From positions 1 through 38,167 of the forward strand of contig CAYZWD010000001.1 in the NCBI GenBank assembly GCA_964482115.1: a stretch of 38,167 nt of DNA, read 5' to 3'. The DNA comes from an uncultured Acidiphilium sp. (GTDB lineage: Bacteria > Bacillota > Clostridia > Christensenellales > Borkfalkiaceae). Shown in pieces: positions 3,354 through 21,384 of the stretch. Made by a program: the position numbers and the translations under genes. The notes below the pieces were generated by a model that ran no database searches, had not been told where the DNA came from, and worked only from the letters and a program-made list of their open reading frames with translations. The number at the start of each line of letters is the position of its first letter. Within the stretch, counting starts at the first letter, position 1.

Positions 3354-5459
3354 TTATTCTAAAACCAAAACCGTGGTTGCGTAGTATTCTATTTCGGTTT
3401 TTATCGTAACCACGCTATCGTTGCGCAAAAAGCGAACGGCTACGCGCTTGCCTGCGCGGGTTAAGCGGCTAACTCGTGAAAATTCAACCCCGCCCAAACG
3501 CAATGCGATAGAACTATACGACTCGCAATTGCCGTTAACAAGCATTAACACGTGCGAAGTTTCGGTTTTAAACAAATACGGGCTAACACCCTCTTTTTCG
3601 GCTATAGCGAAGTGCGGAGCGTGTTCGGCAATAAACTGCGTTATAAAATGTCTGCGCAAATCGCAAAACTGCGAATAGTGCAATTCTTGCAACGGATACG
3701 GCACGACGGCAAAGCCTTTTGATTTAGCCGCGCCAGAATTATTTTCCGCGCCAGAATTATTTTCCGCGCCCGAATTATTATCCGCGCCCGAATCAACGAC
3801 CGAATCAACGACCGAGCCCTCGACGAAACCGTTGGCAACCCGCGCGCACAAATGATTTTTGACTTCCGTGCGGACGGTAACGGGCGAATCGTAAACGACG
3901 TTTATAAAATCCCCGGCAGAGGCGCGGCACGACGCGCGCAGCCCGCGCACGCCCTCGATTATTAAATTTTGGTCGGAACATTCTTCGTAAGCGTGAAAAC
4001 CCGTACCGGGCAAAACCGTATTAGCGCTATGCGCGCCGATTAAAGAAAGTAACCCGCGGGCTTGCAGTTCGAGCACGGCGCCCCCATCTAAAATCACGTA
4101 GTTATTTTTAAAAAGGTCGCGCAGCTCGTCATCGGTAAAATAGTGCGAATTGTCTTTGCAAAGCAAAACGCACGCACCGCTCAGATTTTTTTGTTTTGTG
4201 TAAGCGTAGCTAACGCCTAGCGCCGAAATATAAGCCGCCAGCTTGCTTTCGTTGGCTTTTAAATCGGAAAATTCGCCGTTTTTGCTTATGGGCAAGCAAT
4301 ACGCCGCGCGGCAATCGATAGGCACAAGCACGCCGACAAGCGAATCAAACTGCAAATGCAAATCGAGCACGGCTTGTTGCAAGGGCAAAACTTCTTTTAC
4401 CACCTGCCCGTAACCGGACGATTCACGCACGCCGTTGCCGATAAAATCGTAAATAGAATACGTCATACCGGATAAAACCAGTGGCAAAGCCGCCTCTAAG
4501 GCGAAACGCAAATAACGCGGACTACGCGCGAATTGCGACGACGGACCGTGCTCCACCTCCGGCAAAACGACCACGTTTTTAGGCGACGCGGCGCGCACGG
4601 GCATACTTACCGAGTTTAAATACCAAAGGTTATCCTTACCCGAGGGCTCGCCGTAGCACATATGAATGCGGCTTATTTCGTTACCTTTGCAAGACAGCGT
4701 TTCGAATAACGCGCCCCAATCGCGAGCCTCTGCTAAGTGCGAATCGTAAGCAGAACTCATAAGCCCCACTTCGGTAGCGGGATTGCCCGCCTTTACAGCC
4801 GCAGTAATTTCAGCCGCAAGCGAAAGGATGCAATCGCGGCTGACGTTTAAAAACACGGCGCGTTCTTTAGTTGGTTCGCCCGCGGCAAAAACGCGTTCTA
4901 CAAACTGCTCGCGGGTGTAATCAGTGCCCAAGCGGCGGTTATATTCCGCCATATGCAACGGGCAAAAACAGCCGACGCCGTAAAGCGGCGCGTGGTTGTG
5001 TAAACGAAAATCGTCCTCTATCCAAAAAGTATCGGGCTTTAACTCTTTAACCAAAAAGGTTACGTAATTTTTATAATATTGCAGCCAATTTTTATCTAGC
5101 GGGCAAGTGCAAAACTCAGCCGAGCGCCCGTTCATATCCACTAGATAATTAAAGTTTTGCCCGACGTAAGGCTGCATTCCTCGGTCGGCATGCCCTAATT
5201 CGAGCCAATTGTTCAAACTGACCGAAATACCTGCGGCTTTTAACGCGTTAGCCGCACGGCGAAGCACTTCGAGCCAAGGTAAAGCTGCCTCGCAAGTAAT
5301 GTGCCCGCGATTAAAATCTTCGGCGTTAAACATAAGCATTACGTTATCGAATCCGTATTTAACGCAATGTTTAACCATATCGGAAATGCGCTCGTCTGCA
5401 CGACAGTCGTCGGTGATTTGTAAGCGTAAGCAGTTGTGATATTTGCGATTATATTCCAT
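3354..5459 (-). CDS. Cytoplasmic 701-aa protein, a putative TIM-barrel glycoside-hydrolase-like enzyme (distant GH42-like layout). The exact function is unknown.
   Basis: Long ORF with no signal peptide. RBS GGGGG is the complement of 5466-5470. The motif FWIEDDFR followed by GCFCPLHMAEYNRRLG, and FCTCP upstream, resembles the acid/base strand plus Cys-cluster arrangement of GH42 enzymes. This rests on memory of the family, not on a search. Confidence 0.8.
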   Translation of the reverse strand: MEYNRKYHNCLRLQITDDCRADERISDMVKHCVKYGFDNVMLMFNAEDFNRGHITCEAALPWLEVLRRAANALKAAGISVSLNNWLELGHADRGMQPYVGQNFNYLVDMNGRSAEFCTCPLDKNWLQYYKNYVTFLVKELKPDTFWIEDDFRLHNHAPLYGVGCFCPLHMAEYNRRLGTDYTREQFVERVFAAGEPTKERAVFLNVSRDCILSLAAEITAAVKAGNPATEVGLMSSAYDSHLAEARDWGALFETLSCKGNEISRIHMCYGEPSGKDNLWYLNSVSMPVRAASPKNVVVLPEVEHGPSSQFARSPRYLRFALEAALPLVLSGMTYSIYDFIGNGVRESSGYGQVVKEVLPLQQAVLDLHLQFDSLVGVLVPIDCRAAYCLPISKNGEFSDLKANESKLAAYISALGVSYAYTKQKNLSGACVLLCKDNSHYFTDDELRDLFKNNYVILDGGAVLELQARGLLSLIGAHSANTVLPGTGFHAYEECSDQNLIIEGVRGLRASCRASAGDFINVVYDSPVTVRTEVKNHLCARVANGFVEGSVVDSVVDSGADNNSGAENNSGAENNSGAAKSKGFAVVPYPLQELHYSQFCDLRRHFITQFIAEHAPHFAIAEKEGVSPYLFKTETSHVLMLVNGNCESYSSIALRLGGVEFSRVSRLTRAGKRVAVRFLRNDSVVTIKTEIEYYATTVLVLE
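3728..3811 (-). repeat. In-frame 18-bp and 12-bp tandem repeats inside the 701-aa gene.
   Basis: ccgcgccagaattatttt occurs twice, followed by two diverged copies, then ccgaatcaacga twice. The encoded linker is SVVDSVVDSGADNNSGAENNSGAENNSGAAKSKG. Confidence 0.9.
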
Positions 5460-5528: not shown

Positions 5529-5557
5529 ATTTTAACATAATGCGGGCGTAATGTCAA
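5529..5557 (-). promoter_or_regulatory. Strong sigma-A-type promoter for the 701-aa gene.
   Basis: Minus strand reads TTGACA (complement of 5552-5557), a 17-nt spacer ending in TGt (extended -10), then TAAAAT (complement of 5529-5534). Confidence 0.65.
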
Positions 5558-5632
5558 TGAATTTTTTAGTGCCTTTGTTTATTGCGCAATCGGGAACGGA
5601 AAGACGTCTTTTCGTTTTTTTGCATATATAAC

Positions 5633-5725
5633 AAGCCGAGATCACGCCGCGGGGCGGCACTGCCAACGCAGTTCGGCTCGCGCTTTTCGCGCTCGCTCGG
5701 GGCAGCCGAGAGATATTATCCGCCC
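5633..5725. repeat. Copy A of a repeated intergenic element. It lies between the terminator of the 1785-aa gene and the promoter of the 701-aa gene.
   Basis: caagccgagatcacgccgcggggcggcactgccaacgcagttcggctcgcgcttttcgcgctcgctcgg aligns by eye at roughly 80% identity with 11614-11679. A second, degenerate agccgaga..atccgcc motif follows at 5703-5725. Confidence 0.75.
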
Positions 5726-5780
5726 TCTTCGGCAAGTTTTCCACCGACGATGGCAGAGTAACGTTCGGGTTTATACAAGC

Positions 5781-5811
5781 AAAAAAGCCTTCCGAGAGGA
5801 AGGCTTTTTTT
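5781..5811 (-). terminator. Bidirectional rho-independent terminator ending the long minus-strand gene run.
   Basis: aaaaaagccttcc - gaga - ggaaggctttttttt. The GC-containing stem is 8 bp, the loop is 4 nt, and there is an A-run upstream and a T-run downstream. It lies about 70 nt after the stop codon at 5882. Confidence 0.85.
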
Positions 5812-5881
5812 GTTGTTTCAATTGCTTGTTGTTGCAATTGCTTTTTCACTTTCTTTTGCTATTGTTTTGCCGCTTTTGAGC

Positions 5882-8800
5882 TTAGCCCTCTAGCGAGAAA
5901 CCTGCACAAGTAACGGAACCGTTGTTCGCGAACAAGTAAGCCCTGTTAGTTATAGTACAAGACGTAAAGGTTATCTTATCGCCCGAAATAGTACCAACTA
6001 AGGTTTTACCTTGGTCACCTGAAATCGTCCTTGTGAAAGTAAAGGTAATTTCGTTACCGTTTAACACGGCGGTAAAGTCAAAGTAATAAGACGTTCCACC
6101 GCCGTATAACGTACCGGTTATCTCACCGCTAACGGCAAACTCTATTCTAAGCGTTTGAACGGCGTTTTCACCGTCTTTGTAGCTACCGGTGAAAGTTTTT
6201 CCTGCGAAGATAGAAACTTCAGCAAAGGTTTTGCTTTCTACGTTGATGCCGTAAGTTACGGCTACGCCGCTTGCGGGGGTTAAGGTAATAGCGCTACCGT
6301 TTACGTTGTAAGTTCCGCTTTCTGTACCGTGAGTGTAAGCGCCCTTGCCGTCTAAAACGAAAGCAACGTCGTCACCCGCTAAGGTGTAAGAACCCTCAAA
6401 GCCGTCCGAAGTGGGGATAGTATCCGAAGTAACGCCGTTATCTACGGAGAATTTAGTTAATTCTACGCCGTCGCGGGTTACGGTTATTATTCTTGCGCTT
6501 TCAACTTCTACCGTGTTGCCGGCGAGATCGGTTGCGGTAACGGTTACGTTAGCGTAAAGCTTATCGTTGCGCATAACGATAACCATGGTTTGCGAACCGA
6601 AATCAACCGTCATAATGCGCGTTTTGTTACTATCGAAGTTAACCAAAGCCGTTTTAGCAACGGTTACGTCGGTGGTTGAAACAACGTATACGTAAGTATC
6701 GGTGCCAAGCCCGTTGCTTAAACCGCTATAGTAGTTGACGGCAAATGCTTTTGCCGATGCATCGTAATAACCGAAATATTCGTCAGAGCCGCTAGTGAAA
6801 GTAAACGTGCCGGTTTCCGCATTATAGTTAGTGATTTTACCCGTTTTAAAGCCCGAAACGGTGCCGTCTGCCGCTATCGTCGTAAAGTTCATCTTATACA
6901 AATTAGAAGCATAATATACTTCAAATCCGCTATAAGTGCCGCATAAAGGCGAAGGATCGATATATTTAGCTTTATAAATATAAATAGCGTTCGTAAGCTC
7001 TGTGCTGACGGAGGCTTTTGCATCCGTATAATCAAGGCCGTCCATTAAATACCAGTCGTCGAATACTTTTCCGTCGTCAAGAACTCTGGTAAGTTTGGCG
7101 GGTATCTCTGTATCCGTTAATTTTTCGCTTTGGAACTTGTTAACCGTTTTTATGGGATTTACACCATCGTAATCATAGAATTGAACGCTTACGGGATAAT
7201 TGTATTCAGCATAGAATTCTACAAGTTCGGCATTGAGTTTAGTGCTAGAAGTTACCTTATCGCCCCATTCGCCGAGTTCGCCGTGCGCAGTGTAAATGCC
7301 GGCAAATTTCTTTTGCGTCGCATCGTAACCGGTGGGCGCGTAATTGTAAACCTTATAAGGAGCGGATTTGTCATCGCCAACGTAGCAATCGAGATCTTTT
7401 CCGGCGAAGGTTGCAAGAAGAGTAGTGCCGTCTTCATCGTAAATTTTTACTACTACTTGGTTTTTCCATTTTGCGTAGAAAGTAAAGGCATCTGAAGTAA
7501 GTATAAACGAAGATTCTAGCTTAGTACCCCATTCTCCGTCCGTTCCGTCTGCCGTGCACCAAGCTTCTAACTTCTTAGTTTTTTCATCACCGTCATATGC
7601 GTTGGTGAGGTAATTGGCACGGTCAGCCCACACGCCTACTGTATCGCCTACGTAATAGGTTTTAGAAAGGGTTCTTTCAACTTCGGTAGCACCGTCCATC
7701 CAAGTAAAGGTTACTTGTTTAGACCATTTTGCATAGAAATTAGTATCAGTTTCGGTAAGAACGGTAGCAGAGGTAACCTTAGTGCCCCAATCGCCGTCCG
7801 TACCGTCTAAGGTATACCATCCGTCGAAACGGTAGCCGTCCTTAGTGAGGTTAGCTATATCCGCCGATTTAACGGTGTCGTTTACGAAATAATCGGTTTT
7901 AACGGTAGTAGATTCGCCGTCGTGCAAAGTAACGGTGACGGCAGCTTCCCACTTAGCGTAAAGTGTCGTATCTTCAGAAACGGTGATTGCCTCGGTAGAT
8001 ATTTTGTTAGTTAAATCTTCGTCCGTAAACCAACCGACGAAGCGGTAACCGTCTTCGGAGAGGGCGGGAAGAACTACCCTTGCGTTTTTGCGTTCGGTTA
8101 AGGTCGTATCGCTCAAAGAACCATGACCGTTCAACGTGTAAGTTACGGTTACTTCAGGCGTAACGTCCGTAAGGTCGGTTTCGCCTATAGTTGCCTCGGT
8201 ATAAACGTCGTTAATGGTGAAGGCTATCTTTTTATCGGCGAGGTCTAAAATAGTATAGGTAGAAGTGCCGGGGTTAAAGTCTCCCGCGACGGTGATTATT
8301 CCGTTACCGTTTAAAGTGGCGGTTTCTTCGCCTAAAGTATAAGTGCCTGCAAATTGATCGATAGGCGCGGCGTTGGTTATTACTCTACCGTTTATGGTGA
8401 GGTTTTTAATATAAGCTGCGTCTAACCCTTTATCGACACCAGAGTCCTTTTGATAAGTAATTCTTATTTCTTTGTAACTAAAATCCGGGTGAACGTAAGC
8501 GGTTAAACGTTGCCAGCCCCAGCTATCGGGATCGGAAGCGTTTGCGCTATGATTGCCGCCTGCGGTTATCGTAGTTTGCTTAACGCCTTCGGCGTTACTG
8601 TAATATATTGTTAAATAATCATAGCTAGTTGCACTTTCGGATTCGCAGAAATAATCGAACGAAATTTCGGTTAAGCCCGAAACCGCCTCAAGCCTCAAAA
8701 GTGCGGTGCTGCTTTTAACGTGATAGTTATTCGACTTAAACGCGCCGATAGTTTCGTCGTAAACGAAAGTGTAAGTATTGCCTAACTCAACGGAAACGTC

Positions 8801-11239
8801 GCCACCCCAGCTGTATTTTGCGTAAACGGTGGTAAAGCCTAAGTCTTCTTGAGCAACGGCGTTATCGCTAATTCTGTTTTCAAAATCGGCGTCCGTATAC
8901 CAGCCTTCGAACTTGTAACCGTCTACGTAAGCGCCGTGCGCGGGTAAGCTTTCAACTATATTGTCGGATTCGTTTAAAACAACGGTCGTGCCGACGTAAT
9001 ATTTATCTACTATACCGATAGTGTAATAATCTTTCCAAGCGACGTAAATGATAGCACCGTTATCGTCTGCGGAAATCAACAAGGATTCTTCGATAACGAC
9101 TTCTGCCCCGTCGACTTTAACGTGCCAATTTAATACTTCGTAAGTAAAGCCGTCCGTTACGTAGCTTAAGCCGTATTGATCTTTAAGCGCGGCAACGATA
9201 GAATCGCCGTCTAAAAGCGTAACGGTAACGTCTGCGCGAACGCCTTTTTCATCTTTAACGGTTAAGCTTAGTTGCGCCTTAAATGCGGCGGTAAGCGTTA
9301 CGTTTGCAACAGGGGTGATAGTATCGCCGTCTTCATAAAGCACGTCGCCGTTTGCCCAGTTAACGAAAACGTAAGTTAAGCCGTCCGCACCAACGTAGTT
9401 GGGCGCCGCGGTAAGCGTATGCGGTACGTTTTTGTTTACTTCGTCAGAGTAAGTTCTGCCGTTTACCGATAAAGTTAAGGTAACCATAGGTTTGGTGGTG
9501 ACCAAGTTGCCGTCTTCGTCAACGGTCATTTCATAGTAAACGGGGGTTCCGTCTAAAACGAGTTTTACGGCAAGAGTGTTGCCGTCGGCAAGAACGACGT
9601 AAGTGCCGTTTACGTCGCCGTAAACTATGCCGCCGTGCCCGTCTACGTTAACGATAACCGAATCGTTGGTCGCGGGATCGGTAGTGGTATAAGTATCGGC
9701 AAAGCTGTCTAATTCGATAACGTCGCCGTCGACTAAGCCGTAGCATGCAATTTGCGAGCCGTCCTTAATTACGCGGAACGCGCTTTCGGTTTTAATAGCA
9801 CTAGCAGAAACTAAATCGCCCGCGAAATTTTTAAATACGACGCCGACGTAAACCTCTTTAGCGTCAACGTCTACGAATACGTTTACGTTGTTAGCTACGG
9901 TTGAATCTACGGCGTAGCTGATAGGTCTTACGGATACCCCGTCTACCTCGCGCATAACTTCGGTAGAATCGAACTTAGTAAGGTCGGCAGCCGTTTCGGA
10001 GGGAACCATTATAGAGAACCAAGCGTAATTTAACTCCACGGCGCCCTTATCGAGCTTAGCTTGCGGGAATACTATAACGTTAGAAGCCGCGTCGTAATAA
10101 GCGACGAATTCGAGGCTTCTGTCTTCAGAAACGTCGTCCAAGCCGCAGTCGGCATACGGATCGTGCGTTTCTGCGTAATGATAGCTAGCGGTTACTTTTA
10201 ATAAACCTTTAGTTTTATCGTCAAACGCGAAAGTGAGCGTAGAGTTTGTTATTTCGGAAGTGCAGCCGTCGCGACACCAACCGCCAGTAGAGGCTTCGCC
10301 GTTTTTATTAATCACGGTATCTTCCGCGCTGCCGTCAGCCAAAGTTATAAGCCCTTTAGCTATTACGCCGTTTGACCAGCCCTTGGTTTCAACCAAAGCA
10401 AAGGAGGCGTTTGCAAATTTAGCGGCATCGCAAACTTTACATTCGCCGTAAACGTCGTAATCGTGAGCGGCGTAGGCGGTGCCGGTTATTTCGGTTAAAG
10501 TAACTTTTGTGCCGTCAACGAACAAATCGCCGCATACCGTGCATTTTTTGTGCGCGGCTACCGCGTAACTTTCGCACGTAGCGGGAACGGCGGTAACGTC
10601 AATTAAGCTGTGAGCTGCAGCGGCTACTACGTCGTCTTCTGAAACTTCAGCGCCGTCGATAAACAATTTTCCGCAAGCCGTGCACTCTTCGTGCGCTATA
10701 ACGCCGTCTTCGGTGCAAGTAGCGGGAACGGCGGTAACGGGCGTTAAATCGTGAGCTGCAGCGGCTACTACGTCGTCTGCTGAAACTTCAACGCCGTCGA
10801 TAAACAATTTTCCGCAAGCCGTGCACTTTTTGTGCGCTATAACGCCGTCTTCGGCGCAAGTAGCGGGAACGGCGGTAACGTCAGTTAAGCTGTGCGCATC
10901 TCCGTTAACGGGAATTTCAACCTTAACAGAGCCGAAAAGCGAAGTGTAAGTTTTTTCGCCTTTTAGCATACACGTTGCGGGAACGGTGTTAGTAAGCGTC
11001 CACACGCTCGTATCCGAAAGAGCGGGTACGGGTACGGTTATTTCGTTGCCGCATTCACATTTGCCTATTAGTTCGCCCGCAGCGTCTTCAGTGGGAGCGG
11101 TGCCTTGCGTTAAATCGTAAACGTAAGCGTGGGTATGGTCCGCGATATCGCTACTACCGGACGAGCCTTGCCCGCATGCCGCACACAAAGAAAGCGCAAA
11201 CGCGAGTATCGCTATAAGCAGCAATTTCTTCTTCGTCAT
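5882..11239 (-). CDS. Giant surface lipoprotein (1785 aa). From the N-terminus it has Cys/His-knuckle tandem repeats, a long beta-rich region, about 8 Listeria-Bacteroides (Flg_new / InlB B-repeat type) repeats, and several small modules that each begin with a GTY/GSY motif.
   Basis: I place the start at the ATG that is the complement of 11237-11239 (MTKKKLLLIAILAFALSLCAACGQGSSGSS, signal plus lipobox-like AAC). GGAGG lies 10 nt upstream. The 60-aa extension in the ORF track is a translation of the upstream tandem repeat array. Flg_new-type motifs include GYKFEGWYTDADF...TVYAKY, GYRFVGWFTDEDL...TLYAKW and GYRFDGWYTLDGTDGDWG...NFYAKW. Confidence 0.9.
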   Translation of the reverse strand: MTKKKLLLIAILAFALSLCAACGQGSSGSSDIADHTHAYVYDLTQGTAPTEDAAGELIGKCECGNEITVPVPALSDTSVWTLTNTVPATCMLKGEKTYTSLFGSVKVEIPVNGDAHSLTDVTAVPATCAEDGVIAHKKCTACGKLFIDGVEVSADDVVAAAAHDLTPVTAVPATCTEDGVIAHEECTACGKLFIDGAEVSEDDVVAAAAHSLIDVTAVPATCESYAVAAHKKCTVCGDLFVDGTKVTLTEITGTAYAAHDYDVYGECKVCDAAKFANASFALVETKGWSNGVIAKGLITLADGSAEDTVINKNGEASTGGWCRDGCTSEITNSTLTFAFDDKTKGLLKVTASYHYAETHDPYADCGLDDVSEDRSLEFVAYYDAASNVIVFPQAKLDKGAVELNYAWFSIMVPSETAADLTKFDSTEVMREVDGVSVRPISYAVDSTVANNVNVFVDVDAKEVYVGVVFKNFAGDLVSASAIKTESAFRVIKDGSQIACYGLVDGDVIELDSFADTYTTTDPATNDSVIVNVDGHGGIVYGDVNGTYVVLADGNTLAVKLVLDGTPVYYEMTVDEDGNLVTTKPMVTLTLSVNGRTYSDEVNKNVPHTLTAAPNYVGADGLTYVFVNWANGDVLYEDGDTITPVANVTLTAAFKAQLSLTVKDEKGVRADVTVTLLDGDSIVAALKDQYGLSYVTDGFTYEVLNWHVKVDGAEVVIEESLLISADDNGAIIYVAWKDYYTIGIVDKYYVGTTVVLNESDNIVESLPAHGAYVDGYKFEGWYTDADFENRISDNAVAQEDLGFTTVYAKYSWGGDVSVELGNTYTFVYDETIGAFKSNNYHVKSSTALLRLEAVSGLTEISFDYFCESESATSYDYLTIYYSNAEGVKQTTITAGGNHSANASDPDSWGWQRLTAYVHPDFSYKEIRITYQKDSGVDKGLDAAYIKNLTINGRVITNAAPIDQFAGTYTLGEETATLNGNGIITVAGDFNPGTSTYTILDLADKKIAFTINDVYTEATIGETDLTDVTPEVTVTYTLNGHGSLSDTTLTERKNARVVLPALSEDGYRFVGWFTDEDLTNKISTEAITVSEDTTLYAKWEAAVTVTLHDGESTTVKTDYFVNDTVKSADIANLTKDGYRFDGWYTLDGTDGDWGTKVTSATVLTETDTNFYAKWSKQVTFTWMDGATEVERTLSKTYYVGDTVGVWADRANYLTNAYDGDEKTKKLEAWCTADGTDGEWGTKLESSFILTSDAFTFYAKWKNQVVVKIYDEDGTTLLATFAGKDLDCYVGDDKSAPYKVYNYAPTGYDATQKKFAGIYTAHGELGEWGDKVTSSTKLNAELVEFYAEYNYPVSVQFYDYDGVNPIKTVNKFQSEKLTDTEIPAKLTRVLDDGKVFDDWYLMDGLDYTDAKASVSTELTNAIYIYKAKYIDPSPLCGTYSGFEVYYASNLYKMNFTTIAADGTVSGFKTGKITNYNAETGTFTFTSGSDEYFGYYDASAKAFAVNYYSGLSNGLGTDTYVYVVSTTDVTVAKTALVNFDSNKTRIMTVDFGSQTMVIVMRNDKLYANVTVTATDLAGNTVEVESARIITVTRDGVELTKFSVDNGVTSDTIPTSDGFEGSYTLAGDDVAFVLDGKGAYTHGTESGTYNVNGSAITLTPASGVAVTYGINVESKTFAEVSIFAGKTFTGSYKDGENAVQTLRIEFAVSGEITGTLYGGGTSYYFDFTAVLNGNEITFTFTRTISGDQGKTLVGTISGDKITFTSCTITNRAYLFANNGSVTCAGFSLEG
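10437..10900 (-). repeat. Tandem 141-bp (47-aa) coding repeats, about 3.3 copies. The two central copies are about 91% identical at the DNA level.
   Basis: The units at 10578-10718 and 10719-10859 differ at about 12 of 141 positions by manual alignment. The flanking copies are more diverged. The encoded unit is H-x-L-x-x-VTAVPATC-x-EDGVIAH-x-x-C-T-A-C-G-KLFIDG-x-EVS-x-DDVVAAAA. Confidence 0.9.
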
Positions 11240-11296
11240 GATAAAATGACCTCCATCTTTAAAATTTTCGGTTTTTTTGCCGATTTTTTTATTTTT

Positions 11297-11448
11297 AAGG
11301 TTTTTTGCGGGCGTTTTTGCGCCCCCAAAGGTTTTTTGCGGGCTTTTTGCGCCCCCAAAGGTTTTTTGCGGGCTTTTTGCGCCCCCAAAGGTTTTTTGCG
11401 GGCGTTTTTGCGCCCGCAAAGGTTTTTTGCGGGCGTTTTTGCGCCCGC
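11297..11448. repeat. Array of five tandem 30/31-bp units, each containing an inverted repeat. It lies between the promoter and the RBS of the 1785-aa gene.
   Basis: The units are 11297-11326, 11327-11356, 11357-11386, 11387-11417 and 11418-11448. Units 4 and 5 contain the perfect palindrome tttgcgggcg-tttttg-cgcccgcaaa (10-bp arms). Units 1-3 carry one or two substitutions or indels in the arms. Confidence 0.95.
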
Positions 11449-11478
11449 AAATAAAAACACTTATTTCTAGACTGTATA

Positions 11479-11507
11479 ATTATACAACAGTTTGGAATTT
11501 TTTGCAA
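11479..11507 (-). promoter_or_regulatory. Near-consensus sigma-A-type promoter driving the 1785-aa lipoprotein gene.
   Basis: Minus strand reads TTGCAA (11502-11507), a 17-nt spacer, then TATAAT (complement of 11479-11484). The predicted leader of about 230 nt contains the five-unit array. Confidence 0.7.
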
Positions 11508-11613
11508 TTAGCTAAATTGCTAAACGCAAATTGTTTTATTTTTAATCGTTATATTTGATATAATCCGCCGTTATAAAAAGCTTATTAACGGTTGAGTTTA
11601 GCCGCTTTTATAA

Positions 11614-11727
11614 CAAGACTAGATTACGCCGCGCGGCGGCGCTGCTACGCGGTTCGGCTCGTTTTTCGCGCTCGCTCAGAATGACGAAAAACGCAATTCA
11701 AGCCGAGATTCCGCCGCGGAGCGGGCG
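11614..11727. repeat. Copy B of the repeated intergenic element, immediately 3' of the 1355-aa gene stop codon.
   Basis: caagactagattacgccgcgcggcggcgctgctacgcggttcggctcgtttttcgcgctcgctcag (11614-11679) matches copy A. A second caagccgagattccgccgcgg motif lies at 11699-11719. Confidence 0.75.
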
Positions 11728-11728
11728 A

Positions 11729-14700
11729 TTAGCCTATTACGGTTAAGCCGCCGGTTTCGTTGCCGATTTCGTCTATTTTTACGGTTACTTGCCTGCCGGA
11801 GGCGTAAGTTATTTGAATTTTTGCACCGCTCGTAAACGAAGTGCCGCTTATATAGCTTACGGTTACGCTTTCGCCAAGCACCGTGCGCGACGACGACGCG
11901 TAATAATCGTAGCCGCTATCCGTTCTTACTGCGCGCAAGATTAATTCGCCGTTGCCGGCAAAATCGGTTGAACGAGCCGCAAAATATTCTGAAAATTTAA
12001 CTATGCCCGTGCCTTCCAGGTGCAATAAGCTGTTTTTCAAGCGACCGTTAAACGTGTACACCTCGCCCGCGTCGGTAGTTGCCGTGGCGCTGAACTGCGT
12101 GCCGTCGGCTGAAATAACCGCGTTGCCGCTGTATTTTACGCCGTTCGAGGTAAGCGTTAAATAGCCGTATTCGTCTATTACGAGCGTGCTGTTGCCCGAG
12201 AACGACCTTTCGAACGTGCGAACCACGGCTAAGCCCTCGTATTTTTTATCGATTACCTGAATTCCGTAATATAACTTTTTGTTAACCCCGCCTACGTTTA
12301 CGGTTACGTAGAACTGATAAAATCCGGGGGTCGAAAACGCTATTGCCGAAGTGTATACCGCGGTTTTTTTCTGCTCTGCGGTAAGTTCGCCGTCTTCGGT
12401 TATTACGGTTATGGTGCTTAAAAAGTCGCTAAGAGAAGTGCCTTTTTTAACGGTGTACGAGCTGACTTTTACGATTGCGCCGTTTAAACTTACGCTTTCG
12501 AAGCCCTCTCCTACGGTTAAGCCGCTTTCAGCCGTTAATACCGTTAGCGTGTTGCCGTCCGCATTGAGCGCTACGTCGGCGCCCGCGCCGTACGTAAGCG
12601 ATTCGCCTAAGTAGCTTATAATCGCGCTAGCCCCGCGCTTTTCGTATTCGAAAAGAACTTTTTCGTAAGAAGTGAGGTTGTAATTGGCTACACCCAAACC
12701 GTAGCCGTTAAAAAATACGTATTTGCTTGCGGTTTTGTTTGTGTATAGCCCGAAAAATTCGTCTTTGACTATAAGCTCGAAAGTTTTCGCTTGTACGTTT
12801 AACGCAAACTTATAACTGAACGGATAAATTTCTACCTTTTCTTCGTCCGTATCCTTAATAGCCTTTACCGCCGCGCGTAAATCGGTAGTGTAAGAAACGC
12901 TTTGCGTGTTTTTGGCTTTGTTTACGGTTACTATTTTTGCGCCGTGAACGGTAAAAGTGCCCTCGGCTACGTTGCTGGAATTGTAACCTAAACCCGAAAG
13001 GTCGTACATAGAAAAACTAAATAACGACTCAGTGCCCACCGTTAGCGACGCGGTTGGCGTTTGCGCTAGGTTAAGCGTTGCCGACACGCCGTTTATCGCA
13101 CCCCTAAAGCTACCGGAATACGCTTGCTCGGATTCGGAATCCACAACGCTCGCCTTGCTTTCCGAAGAAATCCTGAACCCGTAAGTTTCGCCAAGCAACG
13201 TTACCGCGGACGTTACGCCCACGGTTTTTTCAAAGCCGTCGGCAAAAACCGCCTCTCCAAAGGTTATTTTATAATCGTAATCGCTTGAAGCATGCGAATA
13301 TAAATACGTTTTTAAACCGTACCACTTATAGCCGCCGTCGATTAGATTTTTTACCTTGAAAAGGTCTATAGAATAGTTGGCGGTGTCGCCCTCTAAAACG
13401 TGCTTGCCCGACTTTGCGGAATTAATTGCGAACGAATCGACTATTTGCCACTGCGCCGCGTTAAAATATACTATCGGACGGGTAACGTTGGTTAGTTTCA
13501 TGCGCAAATAGTTATCGTAAACCAAAACGGCAACGCCGTTATCGTAACTTAAAATAAAGTTAGAGCGCTCTAACGTAAGGCGGAAATCGCCCGCCCCAAC
13601 GCCGCTAACGTCGCTTGCCGATTTGCCGTTTACCGTAATAGCCATATCCGAACTAATCGTCATGTCGCCGATTTGTTGCGATTTTACGGCGTCGTCAACG
13701 ACTAAGCCCTCGTCGTCGTAAGTGGCGGAAGAACCTATGGTTAAAAGCGAAGTTTTATACGTGCCTATCATGCCGCCGTCTATAACCGTTACGTTCGCCG
13801 TTTTTTGCCGTTCTTTATATTCTAACGTTAAATCGTAAGAGCCGAGGGCGAACGGATTGAACGAGCCGCTTATCATATCCGGCGTTACGGCTATGCGCAT
13901 GCCTTCGTCCGTAACGGTGAAAAGCTTCGTTATATCGAGCGAGTAGCCCACCGTTATTACCTTGTTTTGCGCGGTTATTTCGGTGTTGCCTATCACTACG
14001 GCGTCGTATTCGATATATACGGGATCTGCCGTTACGCCGTTTACGTATACCGCCACCCTTACGGTGGTTTTGCCCGTTTCGTTTACGTTTACGCCGTTTT
14101 TTACCTCCGCATAACAAGCCGTGTAGCCGTTTGCGTTGGATCTATCCGCGGTTAGGGTTTGCGGTAAGCCGTTTAAAACAAGCTTTATGTTGCTTAACGC
14201 GTTGAACGACGCGCCTTTTTTAATTTCTACGCGGCTTTGCTCGGTTGTGAGCGTATATTCGTTTCGTACTACTTGATACGTTACTGTTTTTTCGGGATAA
14301 GTGAATTTTACACCCGAAAGACCAAAGCTTTTTTCGTTATAGCTGAGCTTTAACGTTACGGAATAACTGCCGACTATGTCGAAATTTACGTCGTCTACCC
14401 CGATTAAATAAGAAGATAGGTCGCTGAACTCAACGCCGTTAACGCTTACTTTAAAGTCGGCTGAAAAATCGTACGTCGCCTTAGGCGTGCCGCTCTTTAT
14501 TATTACTTCGCTAGAACGCGCGTAATCGATTATTACGCCGTTTTTTACCGTTACCGTTGCGGTTGCCACGCGCCCTTCGTAATTGAGCGTTACCGTATAA
14601 TCGCCGCCAACCGAATAATCGACCTCTCCGCTGAGCATATCGTAAGTAACCGACACGGGCTTACCGTCACGCGTTATTTCAAACAGCGAAGTGGGTGCTA

Positions 14701-18924: not shown

Positions 18925-21384
18925 TTACTCTGCCCAAAGGTACACGAATAAATCTAAGCCTTCGTCGGCGGGCTTAATAACCAAGTTGCAGCCCGCTTTT
19001 CTGTATTCTCCGCTACCGTCCGCAGCTTTTGCGAACCCTTTAGCCTTTAAAAACGCGTCTATCTTGTCTAGCGAAGAATTAATCGTATAGTCCATATCCA
19101 GCGGAACGTCGTAATAAAGCTTAACGGTGCTTATAGCTTTATAAGAGTTGCCTACCGGTTTTTGATATATTTGAGGCATGCCTAAGCCGAAAGTATCGCC
19201 CAAAGCGTCCGCGTCGCTGAAGAAAGGTATTTCTTCGGCGGTTATGCCGCTAAGCGCGGGTATGCCGTTTTTACCGAAGAAATAGCTAGCAAAATAATCG
19301 CCCGCGGGAATTAAAGTTTCGGTTTCGTATTCGGCAATGATGGCCACGTCGTTCCATTTAGTGGGTAGCGGCTTAGAATCAAACGCGTTTATGCGCGCTA
19401 AGTCTTTATCCGCAACGGTTGCCGTGTTAAAATCGGAATAAGTAATATCTACCACGCCGTAAAAACCTTGGCTATCTATGCTGTAATAAAAGCCCGAACC
19501 TACTATATAATAATCGCCGTTAACGGCTTGAACGTCTACGTAAGTGGCGAACTCGGTAGTTCCGCTAACGCCTATAGCCGCAAATAAGCCGTAAAGGTTT
19601 ATATCGTTGCCTACGCCGCTATAAAACTCGGTTGCCACGGTAGACATTGCGTCGTCCGCGATAAAGCGGGTAAGCTCGGCTTCTTCGTCGTAATAACAGC
19701 CGCGGTTGAATATTTCCGCACAGAAATCGAAATCGGGAGTGGCGTCGCTAACGCTGCCGCGATAAGAACGCGTAGGCGCGTAAGTATAATCGCCGTCCGC
19801 AGTTTCGGTATAAAAGAAGGTGTTGTAAACGCCGAGATAATCGTCGCTGTTTCTGTACCCGTAAGAACCTTCGTCCGTAAAGATTTCGCTACTTGCGTAA
19901 GAAGAAGTGTACGGGCGGAAGTAACATACGTCTTGGGTTACTACTTCTTGATAACCGCTAACCGTGGTAGAGGCAAGCCCTTGCATTGCCGAAACGTTGA
20001 TAAGCTCGGTTTTGTAAGAGGTTAACGCTTGCATGTTGGCTATTGCGGTTTGAAGTTTGCGGTATTCCGCTTTGGTGGGCGCGTCTTCGTAATCGTCGAT
20101 TTTAACGTAGCCTCGCATTACGGGAACTTCGGCAGAATCGGACGCGTCTAGCGCGACGTAAAGCCTTTGTTTTGCCATATAGCCCGCTACTATAGAATAA
20201 TCTTTGCCCGAAGCGGCGCATATACCTATAATTTCGCCGTCGTCGATTATAAGCTCGAACGTGCCGTTATCGTCTACGAAAAAGTCGTAAGGATCGCACG
20301 AGGCGATCATGTTTTTAACGAGCTCGCTGCCCGCGTATTTGTATTGCCAACGCCAAGATTGTTCGTTGAACGTAAAGTCTGCCGCGGTTAAACCTTTAAA
20401 GCAGTTATAATAACCCGCTTCCGACCAAAGAACCTTTTCTCCGTTTGCGGTTTTTAAGGGATAACGGCTTAAACGGTTGTTAAAGTCTAACGTGGTTTCG
20501 CACGCGTAACCTTGGTCGTCGCACTCGAAAAAGATTTGTTGGCTTATACCTACGCTTGCGTTTTCATACTCGGCATACCACTTGCCCGTTTCCATAGCCG
20601 TGCGCATGGTTACCGTGTTAGACTGAACCAGCGTTTCGCGTACGCCGCCCGAGCCTAGGTCGGTTTCGGTGTAAATATCTATCATTATAAAGCCGTCGAA
20701 CGAGATGATTTCGTTTTCGCCGCAAAGTGCTTGAACCATTTCGTCGGTAAGCTCGGTTTTAGCAACCGAAGTTACGGCTTTGGTGGCTTTTACCGTGGGA
20801 TCGGCTTCGGAAACGGCAGTTACTTTTAAAATTTTATCGCCGGTAACGTCGCTACCCGTAAACTCTATTGAATTAGCGGTTTTAGCGCCCTCTATAGCCG
20901 CGCCGTCGTTTTCAACCTCGAACTTAATCTTTTTATCGGCTTCGGTTTGCGCGCCGCTTATTTGTGCGGTGAACTTAACCGTTTGCCCCGCTTTTACGGT
21001 GGCGGTTTGCTTGCCGTCTACCGTGCAGTCGAGCGAAATTTCGAGTTTTGCGGGCGTTTGAACGTTTGCCGTAAACGTAACCCGTTGCGACGCGGGCGAA
21101 ACCGAATAACCTTCCGCAAACGCTTTTACGTATATAACGCTATCTACCGTGGTATCGGCTAAGTTATAAGAAGTTTGCTCGGTTTGGTTTTGCGCCTCGT
21201 TTATAAATACGTAGTAGCCTTGCGCATTTTCAACCGCGCCCCACGTTATTAACCCGTCGTCGCTGACGGCAACGTTTTGGGGGGCGGAAAGCGCCTTAGG
21301 CTCGGTAGCAATTAAATCGCATGCCGCCGCGCTTACGCACAAGCAAGCCACTAGCAACAAACATATAAGTTTTTTTAGTTTCAT
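18925..21384 (-). CDS. Surface lipoprotein (819 aa). It has an Fn3-like module, an Ig-like module and a domain of about 600 aa of unknown function, and is a paralogue of the 941-aa gene.
   Basis: MKLKKLICLLLVACLCVSAAACDL is a signal peptide with a lipobox. APQNVAVSDDGLITWGAVENAQGYYVF is an Fn3-type motif. The GGAG RBS directly abuts the stop codon of the preceding gene (RBS 21392-21395, stop 21396-21398). Confidence 0.9.
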   Translation of the reverse strand: MKLKKLICLLLVACLCVSAAACDLIATEPKALSAPQNVAVSDDGLITWGAVENAQGYYVFINEAQNQTEQTSYNLADTTVDSVIYVKAFAEGYSVSPASQRVTFTANVQTPAKLEISLDCTVDGKQTATVKAGQTVKFTAQISGAQTEADKKIKFEVENDGAAIEGAKTANSIEFTGSDVTGDKILKVTAVSEADPTVKATKAVTSVAKTELTDEMVQALCGENEIISFDGFIMIDIYTETDLGSGGVRETLVQSNTVTMRTAMETGKWYAEYENASVGISQQIFFECDDQGYACETTLDFNNRLSRYPLKTANGEKVLWSEAGYYNCFKGLTAADFTFNEQSWRWQYKYAGSELVKNMIASCDPYDFFVDDNGTFELIIDDGEIIGICAASGKDYSIVAGYMAKQRLYVALDASDSAEVPVMRGYVKIDDYEDAPTKAEYRKLQTAIANMQALTSYKTELINVSAMQGLASTTVSGYQEVVTQDVCYFRPYTSSYASSEIFTDEGSYGYRNSDDYLGVYNTFFYTETADGDYTYAPTRSYRGSVSDATPDFDFCAEIFNRGCYYDEEAELTRFIADDAMSTVATEFYSGVGNDINLYGLFAAIGVSGTTEFATYVDVQAVNGDYYIVGSGFYYSIDSQGFYGVVDITYSDFNTATVADKDLARINAFDSKPLPTKWNDVAIIAEYETETLIPAGDYFASYFFGKNGIPALSGITAEEIPFFSDADALGDTFGLGMPQIYQKPVGNSYKAISTVKLYYDVPLDMDYTINSSLDKIDAFLKAKGFAKAADGSGEYRKAGCNLVIKPADEGLDLFVYLWAE

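Follow-up and report, generated by a model that had tools for sequence, protein, structure and literature searches.

A palindromic tandem array in the leader of a lipoprotein gene: a probable lineage-specific minisatellite with a candidate role in the mRNA

Introduction

Why should five nearly identical palindromes stand head to tail in front of the gene for a large surface lipoprotein? The question is raised by a stretch of 38,167 nucleotides (referred to here as the window) from an organism that probably belongs to the Clostridia, in which such an array lies between a promoter-like site and the start codon of the gene. The original prediction had placed four readings side by side, namely an operator array for a dimeric repressor, stem-loops in the mRNA leader, a stack of terminators directed against antisense transcription and an element of variable copy number. 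The present work weighs these readings by examining the anatomy of the array, its predicted structure in RNA and DNA, the same locus in related lineages and the sequence databases. The best overall explanation, to which a probability of roughly 0.55 is assigned, is a lineage-specific minisatellite with a possible effect on the lipoprotein mRNA.

Results

Anatomy of the array

Tandem Repeats Finder delimits a tandem array of period 31 at 11297-11451 (5.1 copies, 97% matches, score 282), and a repeat search of the window recovers five copies with start-to-start spacings of 30, 30, 31 and 31, which bears out the original claim of five head-to-tail 30/31-bp units. The end coordinate first given, 11448, falls 3 nt short, as the last palindrome ends at 11451. 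The array and its units are the following:

11297..11451, minus strand: tandem array of five 30/31-bp units; the unit in gene sense is TTTGCGGGCGCAAAAACGCCCGCAAAAAACC
11426..11451, minus strand: unit 5, the first in gene sense; perfect 26-nt palindrome with a 10-bp stem and a 6-nt loop
11395..11420, minus strand: unit 4; perfect 26-nt palindrome, same sequence as unit 5
11365..11389, minus strand: unit 3; palindrome of 25 nt, imperfect through a G.G mismatch (gene sense) and the loss of 1 nt
11335..11359, minus strand: unit 2; sequence identical to unit 3
11304..11329, minus strand: unit 1, proximal to the gene; 31-nt spacing as in units 4 and 5, stem mismatch as in units 2 and 3

The palindrome TTTGCGGGCG-N6-CGCCCGCAAA occurs without mismatch at 11395-11420 and 11426-11451, just as had been proposed for units 4 and 5, and with a single mismatch at 11304-11329, while no further site was found on either strand of the 38,167-base window. 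In shuffled sequence 0.02 matches are expected, and at least three were obtained in none of 100 shuffles. The units fall into two types, units 5 and 4 being identical to each other and units 3 and 2 likewise, with unit 1 as a hybrid of both. Units 1-3 share a C-for-G change in the arm, and units 2 and 3 carry in addition a 1-nt deletion at the border of arm and loop, so that the one or two arm changes originally ascribed to these three units can be specified as one substitution, accompanied by the deletion in two of them. The presence of the same stem-breaking change in units 1-3 implies copying after the mutation, and indicates that the single hairpins are not under strong selection.

Read along the plus strand, each hairpin of units 1-4 precedes AAAGG and T6, in agreement with the earlier description, whereas that of unit 5 precedes AAATAAAAACAC. 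In the gene sense, AAAAAACC follows each hairpin. Six ORFs of 20 aa or more are also opened by the repeat, among them a 1845-aa form of the lipoprotein. The 60-aa repeat-encoded extension of this form had already been called false, and this part of the original prediction stands; its count of four artefactual ORFs is raised to six, the extended form included. A protein-coding repeat was considered and rejected, since the six ORFs are by-products of a stop-free unit and the true start is provided with a Shine-Dalgarno sequence and a signal peptide. For annotation, the consequence of the repeat is a false N-terminal extension and several spurious ORFs.

The gene, its promoter-like site and its leader

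The array is embedded in the following arrangement:

5882..11239, minus strand: lipoprotein gene of 1785 aa with Listeria-Bacteroides (Flg_new) repeats (Pfam PF09479, E = 1.8e-25)
11240..11296, minus strand: proximal leader, with a small conserved hairpin TCGGCAAAAAAACCGA (11283..11268) and the Shine-Dalgarno sequence GGAGG (11254..11250)
11452..11583, minus strand: promoter block shared with the sister lineages, from TTTTATAACGGCGG to GTGTTTTTAT
11479..11507, minus strand: promoter-like site, TTGCAA (11507..11502), 17 nt, TATAAT (11484..11479), with 10/12 consensus matches

The start codon is the ATG at 11239, preceded by the GGAGG and followed by a lipoprotein-type signal peptide, MTKKKLLLIAILAFALSLCAAC, and the 1785-aa product has a counterpart of the same length (P0001) in the public protein collection. 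In the ortholog of a more distant relative (L029), LFAAC occupies the corresponding position, in keeping with the standard lipobox pattern. The upstream gene, a 1360-aa ORF that is represented in the public collection by a 1355-aa product, has its stop at 11729, and all long ORFs near the array lie on the minus strand.

The promoter TTGCAA-17-TATAAT of the original prediction is present on the minus strand and is the only good promoter-like site in the spacer; none was found by the promoter scan between the array and the ATG. The leader length of about 230 nt that had been derived from it is correct provided that this promoter is used, in which case about 20 nt would separate the predicted 5' end from the first hairpin. 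Promoter-like sites as such are not rare, the region having three against 1.5 +/- 1.0 in shuffles, and the site is a consensus match within AT-rich sequence, where such matches are common. Both hexamers are unchanged in the sister lineages L028 and L030 and both are altered in L011, which has TAGCAA and TATAGAT. A scan of the minus strand found no gene-sense terminator-like site in the intergenic region. Given that the array lies 3' of the only good promoter-like site and that no gene-sense terminator precedes it, it is probably transcribed, either as a 5' UTR or by intercistronic read-through.

The same locus in related lineages

A protein search with the lipoprotein returned one close ortholog (P0002, 81% identity) and more distant syntenic ones, and a search with the upstream gene returned a 90%-identity cluster of eight sequences as well as more distant clusters. 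The spacer is spanned in sister contigs of three lineages, L011 (SRR6824191), L028 (SRR26073956) and L030 (SRR22923249), the first of which is accompanied by a neighbouring contig from the same sample, L031. The flanking genes of L028, L030 and L011/L031 are 92.5-95% identical to those of the window. In the alignment of these loci (A1), the flanking sequence on either side corresponds position by position, and the array itself appears as a gap of about 121 columns in the sister lineages, i.e., as four additional units. The promoter block is 91.7-92.4% identical to L028, L030 and L011 over its 132 nt and contains an invariant stretch of 32 nt, and the proximal leader is 91-94% identical. The segment upstream of the promoter block, 11584-11728, has no counterpart in these three contigs.

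Between the conserved flanks, each sister lineage has one unit, ATTCGGGCGCAAAAAACGCTCGCAAAAACC in L028 and ATTCGGGCGCAAAACGCGCGCATAAAAACC in both L030 and L011, compared to five at the same locus in the window. The reading of the array as copy-number-variable is thereby supported in the form of a difference, five units versus one, between lineages that are about 93% identical.

Evidence for the repeat in an independent read set comes from L017 (SRR22923244), which is 99.9-100% identical to the window. Its contig, assembled with k=31, stops 30 nt inside the first unit, where a repeated 31-mer is expected to break a de Bruijn graph. Assemblies at k=31 are thus interrupted by the repeat; L017 indicates a repeated unit and not the number of copies, the figure of five being that of the window contig alone. 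At the more distant orthologous loci the unit is absent. L029, with an upstream gene that is 62% identical, has a 120-nt spacer with neither the unit nor the promoter block, and the spacer of L012 and L013, whose lipoproteins are about 40% identical, is unrelated, approximately 530 nt long and devoid of the unit. In a lineage that is 77% identical, all 11 contigs stop 66 nt past the upstream gene. L029 does, at 19854-19923, contain another intergenic repeat that is tandemly amplified, showing that the tandem amplification of intergenic repeats also takes place elsewhere in the clade.

Searches for further copies and known families

The unit was not found elsewhere in the 38-kb window. A fuzzy scan of about 100 kb of the loci of close relatives, which was permissive and noisy, recognised only the orthologous site. 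The whole-unit pattern gave no array in the GTDB representative genomes and only 10 isolated and unrelated hairpins (in Verrucomicrobiae, Chloroflexota, Phormidium and Bifidobacteriaceae MAGs), and in IMG/VR it gave three unrelated single hairpins. The JGI metagenomes contained no unit or array junction and no relative of the lipoprotein N-terminus. A blastn search of plasmid and phage records with 11240-11600, which comprises the array, the promoter block and the proximal leader, returned nothing. No Rfam 15 family matched at gathering thresholds, and in E-value mode the matches were generic hairpins, the best of which scored 31 bits against a threshold of 93. The generic, genome-wide REP-like element that the original prediction had named as an outcome against it did not appear in the sequence available, which is the 38-kb window.

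Several other classes of repeat were tried and rejected. The units abut without spacers, which argues against a CRISPR array, and the context is a chromosomal one of Opp and protease genes with no replication or partition genes nearby, which argues against an iteron or a partition site. A G-quadruplex would have only three G5 runs to draw on, spaced at about 30 nt.

Predicted structure in RNA and DNA

Folded in the gene sense, the leader is predicted to form five consecutive hairpins, separated by A-rich linkers, with a total of -93 kcal/mol (z = -7.0), and the minimum-free-energy structure leaves the Shine-Dalgarno sequence free. It is as a prediction, supported by this in silico fold, that the earlier reading of the array as stem-loops in the mRNA leader holds. 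The perfect unit reaches -18.1 kcal/mol (z = -4.4 for unit 5), and the hairpins of units 1-3 range from -12.9 to -14.7 kcal/mol, with unit 3 at the lower end of stability (z = -1.8) and unit 1 at the upper. The single-copy units of the relatives fold at -7.4 and -9.1 kcal/mol (z = -1.7) with imperfect stems of 6 bp or 4 bp, and the whole single-copy leader of L028, at z = -0.85, is no more structured than its shuffles. The weakness of these folds implies that the strong leader structure is new to the lineage of the window and is not a conserved feature of the gene.

The unit of the window and that of L028 differ by three changes in the arms (T for A at position 1, an inserted G and C for T), all of which add pairs in the window unit. 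The stem of L028 is kept by a G.U pair in the gene sense, which on the other strand is an A.C mismatch; as a single case, this weakly suggests that the relevant molecule is the gene-strand RNA. As single-stranded DNA, adjacent units pair out of register in the fold, forming the kind of structure that favours slippage.

Discussion

Origin of the array

The array is very probably a lineage-specific minisatellite, formed locally when a stretch of about 30 nt already present in the leader was amplified in tandem. It has the features by which minisatellites are recognised, a head-to-tail unit in the range of 10-100 bp and a copy number that differs among related genomes at the locus. On the comparative evidence it is not a conserved regulatory device, and, within the sequence available, neither is it a REP-like element of the dispersed kind. 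The additional units were probably produced by replication slippage or unequal recombination, and both are favoured by the GC-rich, palindromic nature of the units and by the capacity of neighbours to pair out of register. The better palindrome of the window may reflect either a "correction" by template switching before the amplification or decay in the relatives.

In two further readings the array would be a dispersed REP- or MITE-like copy, or an artefact of assembly, instead of a local amplification. A different dispersed repeat of about 85 nt does adjoin the array (11600-11690; second copy at 5620-5700), and five copies are seen in one contig only. The unit is, however, plainly a homologue of the one copy that the sister lineages have between these flanks, it has no other copy in the window, and nothing related was found in the approximately 100 kb of the relatives' loci; the matches in GTDB and IMG/VR are unrelated single hairpins, and JGI yielded no junction. 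The longest exact internal repeat is, by reading, shorter than about 60 nt, so that large-k assemblers can resolve the array, and an assembly artefact is made unlikely by the three unit variants and by the independent read set of L017, the contig of which breaks at the unit. Both readings are accordingly given very little credence.

Comparison with known systems

The array behaves like a bacterial intergenic minisatellite, which is a known kind of element, in a form that is palindromic, directly oriented, free of spacers and, as far as seen, confined to one locus. Among known repeats, the MIRU-VNTR loci of Mycobacterium tuberculosis resemble it in their head-to-tail units of tens of bp in the spacer between genes of the same strand, in a copy number that differs between related genomes (five versus one in the present case) and in the slight divergence between units. 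MIRUs are without palindromic symmetry and form a dispersed family with about 40 loci in each genome, whereas the present array has one known locus and each of its units is a hairpin. The REP and BIME units of the enterobacteria are likewise imperfect, GC-rich palindromes of about 30-35 bp that lie in transcribed intergenic regions and are sometimes clustered, and REP hairpins are known to stabilise upstream mRNA. REP sequences occur in hundreds of copies, and the units of BIME clusters alternate in orientation; here, in contrast, no second copy was found in the 38-kb window and all units have the direct orientation. Single stem-loops within a few nt of the 5' end are known as stabilisers from the ompA, ermC and aprE leaders. 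The present leader is comparable in that a stable hairpin would lie close to the 5' terminus of a transcript encoding a secreted or surface protein, yet it has five stems, the first of them about 20 nt from the predicted start.

The STAR elements of Staphylococcus aureus, also a Firmicute, are short, GC-rich intergenic repeats, interspersed direct repeats with spacers, whose loci expand and contract in a locus- and lineage-specific manner (PMC3532100). STAR elements occupy many loci, whereas the present array is spacer-free, palindromic and known from one locus. A precedent for an effect is the cip-cel operon of Ruminiclostridium cellulolyticum, in which GC-rich intergenic stem-loops govern the processing, cleavage and stability of the mRNA (PMC10311766). 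Both systems involve a same-strand row of genes whose products are large extracellular proteins, and R. cellulolyticum is a member of the Clostridia, as the present organism probably is, to judge from the Christensenellales match of its OppF. The cip-cel stem-loops are single, conserved and experimentally mapped, whereas the present ones constitute a recent five-fold repeat known from sequence alone.

Possible effects of the array

If the array acts at the level of the DNA, it could do so as the set of operators that the original prediction had put forward. Each 26-bp palindrome would then bind a dimeric protein, and five in-phase sites would serve as a roadblock or for cooperative repression. 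The two perfect 10-N6-10 palindromes and the location just 3' of the promoter-like site are in keeping with this, as is, by arithmetic, a 30/31-bp spacing close to three helical turns; constant phasing, however, is inherent to any tandem repeat and is thus no evidence. The palindrome is also degenerate in all three sister lineages and imperfect in three of the five units, and the G.U-compatible change of L028 keeps the pairing of the RNA and not the symmetry of the DNA. Cores of 7 bp that are rich in GC and flanked by runs of T and A resemble RNA hairpins rather than typical operators. With no second site in 38 kb and no window gene matching a DNA-binding family (some ORFs matched nothing), operators are an improbable explanation, and the original proposal is left without support.

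The next proposal, a stack of plus-strand intrinsic terminators that would stop antisense transcription leaving the lipoprotein gene toward the promoter, fares slightly worse still. The hairpins with AAAGG and T6 in units 1-4 have the appropriate appearance, and 11393-11422 passes the terminator scan with 13 pairs, but it is the only one of the five units to do so. The T-run is the head of the next unit, which makes the resemblance to a terminator a by-product of the tandem arrangement, and in the single-copy relatives it is absent, the plus-strand hairpin being followed by AATATAAAAACAC. The plus-strand hairpins of these relatives reach -6.9 and -7.7 kcal/mol with z about 0, and there is no plus-strand gene to the left of the array and only a weak promoter-like match on that strand (9/12, 11238-11265). 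The antisense reading of the original prediction is therefore not upheld, and is considered most unlikely.

A more serious contender is that the array is a neutral product of slippage, a tandem duplication of recent date that alters neither transcription nor the fate or translation of the mRNA to a measurable degree. Each sister lineage makes do with one weak unit, the stem mismatch in three of the five units is uncompensated, the array was found in one lineage only among the databases searched, and the amplified repeat of L029 shows that such events happen elsewhere in the clade. Against this, the amplification has added about 120 nt and four stable hairpins to the leader, and additions of this kind usually change the behaviour of an mRNA. 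All three of the arm differences from L028 raise the complementarity in the window, which hints at something beyond drift, although the direction of these changes is not polarised. Neutrality is thus rather unlikely, while deserving more weight than either the operators or the antisense terminators.

For the minisatellite with an effect on the lipoprotein mRNA, the preferred reading, the effect would be exerted in the RNA. Termination of sense transcription is not expected, as no U-tract follows the gene-sense hairpins, and in the gene sense the array does not register as an intrinsic terminator. In the Firmicutes, stable structures in leaders and intergenic regions either impede RNases J, Y and III or mark sites at which they cut. 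The stem-loops of the present leader may similarly be barriers to, or processing sites for, this decay machinery (RNase J, RNase Y, RNase III), and the altered half-life may in turn alter the expression of a fast-evolving surface protein. The behaviour of the Firmicute RNases, together with the cip-cel precedent, makes mRNA stability or processing the most likely point of action, and a change in either is tentatively proposed here, on the strength of the predicted folds, as the effect of the array. Against such an effect, classical 5' stabilisers lie at the very end of the mRNA, whereas the first hairpin here would begin about 20 nt inside it. Since the stems are mismatched in three of the five units and a weak hairpin suffices in the relatives, a strong structure is not required and the array may do nothing; any effect it has may be small or neutral.

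A more speculative extension, to which only a small probability is attached, is a contingency "rheostat", in which slippage driven by the hairpins would alter the number of stem-loops, with appreciable frequency, within populations of this gut or environmental lineage of Clostridia, each number of copies giving its own half-life or level of translation to the mRNA of the rapidly diversifying lipoprotein. If this were true, the dosage of a surface antigen would be heritable and reversible by way of RNA structure, rather than by promoter spacing or frameshifts. Were copy number found to modulate expression, the locus would provide a case of a surface protein tuned by the number of hairpins in its leader in an uncultured Firmicute, and stackable stem-loop modules of 31 nt could offer synthetic biology a handle on expression level. 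As a structural difference specific to one lineage, the array is also a possible strain marker.

Other features of the region

The dispersed repeat of about 85 nt that adjoins the array has its second copy after the lipoprotein gene and has relatives in L029. Also after this gene, at 5781-5810, lies a terminator-like hairpin with U-tracts on both sides. A 105-aa ORF is unlikely to be a gene, given that a strong promoter-like site and a terminator hairpin of bidirectional appearance fall within its span. Among the neighbouring Opp and protease genes, the product of oppF is 71% identical to a protein from a Christensenellales MAG.

Dispersed repeats and turnover of the distal spacer

Besides the array, the intergenic DNA around the lipoprotein gene carries a GC-rich dispersed repeat of about 85 nt, of which the window contains two copies on the minus strand:

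11600-11690, minus strand, copy following the 1360-aa gene
5620-5700, minus strand, copy following the lipoprotein gene

Their common pattern is …GAGCGAGCGCGAAAA..CGAGCCGAAC.GCGT.GCAG.GCCGCC.CGCGGCGT.ATCT…CTTGTTATA. A relative of this repeat lies downstream of the lipoprotein ortholog in L029, a more distant orthologous locus (sites 19730-19790 and 19854-19923), where a 27-nt motif (TCGTCATCTTGAGCGA…) is itself repeated in tandem in 2.5 copies; the motif resembles the TCGTCATTCTGAGCGAGCGC stretch immediately upstream of the window copy at 11600-11690. The REP-like element of this locus is the ~85-nt repeat and not the 31-bp unit of the array.

The distal spacer, which runs from the stop codon of the upstream gene to the promoter block (11584-11728), shows no detectable similarity to its counterparts in the sister-lineage contigs L028 (14069-14275) and L030 (14069-14255). 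It is flanked by genes and a promoter block that are 92-95% identical between the window lineage and the sister lineages; the distal spacer itself has been replaced, apparently by differing copies of dispersed repeats. In the 77%-identical lineage, 10 of the 11 contigs carrying P0122 are shown (L018-L027), and every one of these, from different samples, ends 66 nt past the stop codon of the 1355-aa gene; the two ends that were read both finish in …GAACCCATTAAGC. This common end point suggests that the spacer of the 77%-identical lineage holds another repeated or variable sequence.

Motifs in the promoter region

A perfect, AT-rich palindrome of 14 nt, TGTATAATTATACA, occupies 11473-11486 and overlaps the -10 hexamer. 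It is unchanged in L028 and L030, while in the third sister-lineage contig, L011, a 1-nt insertion (TGTATAGATTATACA) turns it into a 7-1-7 layout. This palindrome resembles a classical operator more closely than the GC-rich units of the array do, yet it may have arisen by chance, since TATAAT is nearly palindromic on its own.

On the plus strand, an extended -10-like sequence, TGATATAAT, is found at 11556-11564 within a 32-nt block that is invariant across all lineages. Its direction is toward the 3' end of the upstream gene, away from the array, and a weak terminator-like hairpin follows it at 11589-11604. The two together may mark a short transcript, divergent or antisense, or may be fortuitous.

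The lipoprotein gene and its downstream region

Near its 5' end (10573-10888) the lipoprotein gene contains an in-frame tandem repeat of 141 nt (47 codons), in 2.2 copies with 90% identity, and its counterpart in L029 (14550-14991) has a period of 138 nt and 3.2 copies. The Logan contigs L028 and L030 both end inside this repeat. The lipoprotein (gene at 5882-11239) shares 81% protein identity with that of L011, and the DNA is 86.6% identical over an aligned stretch of 4.8 kb. The three genes upstream show 92.5-95% DNA identity between lineages, and OppF shows 97% protein identity. The lipoprotein has diverged further between lineages than its neighbours, a difference that is consistent with a fast-evolving surface protein.

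Two regulatory-like features lie beyond the gene:

5781-5810, minus strand, terminator-like hairpin flanked on each side by a U-tract (AAAAAAGCCTTCC-GAGA-GGAAGGCTTTTTT), about 70 nt past the lipoprotein stop codon
5529-5557, minus strand, strong promoter-like site ahead of the 701-aa gene, TTGACA-17-TAAAAT (11/12), preceded by a TG

Both are covered by a 105-aa ORF (5532-5849), for whose product a lookup by exact protein returned no record, and which is probably not a gene.

Other repeats

Three further short tandem repeats occur in the window:

371-447, A-rich, period 22/23, 3 copies, downstream of the 492-aa gene
2612-2657, AAACGCAAA, period 9, 5.1 copies, at the start of the histidine-phosphatase ORF
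3728-3793, period 18, 3.7 copies, within the 701-aa ORF

Among the GTDB representative genomes, a Verrucomicrobiae MAG (CAWBIP010000002.1; matches L001, L004, L007 and L010) carries the stem of the array unit with the loop GGATATCC. There the stem is embedded in a sequence of at least 80 nt that recurs unchanged, in at least four copies, within one 4-Mb contig; this sequence is a dispersed repeat of that unrelated genome. Contigs of Phormidium lacuna present a similar case.
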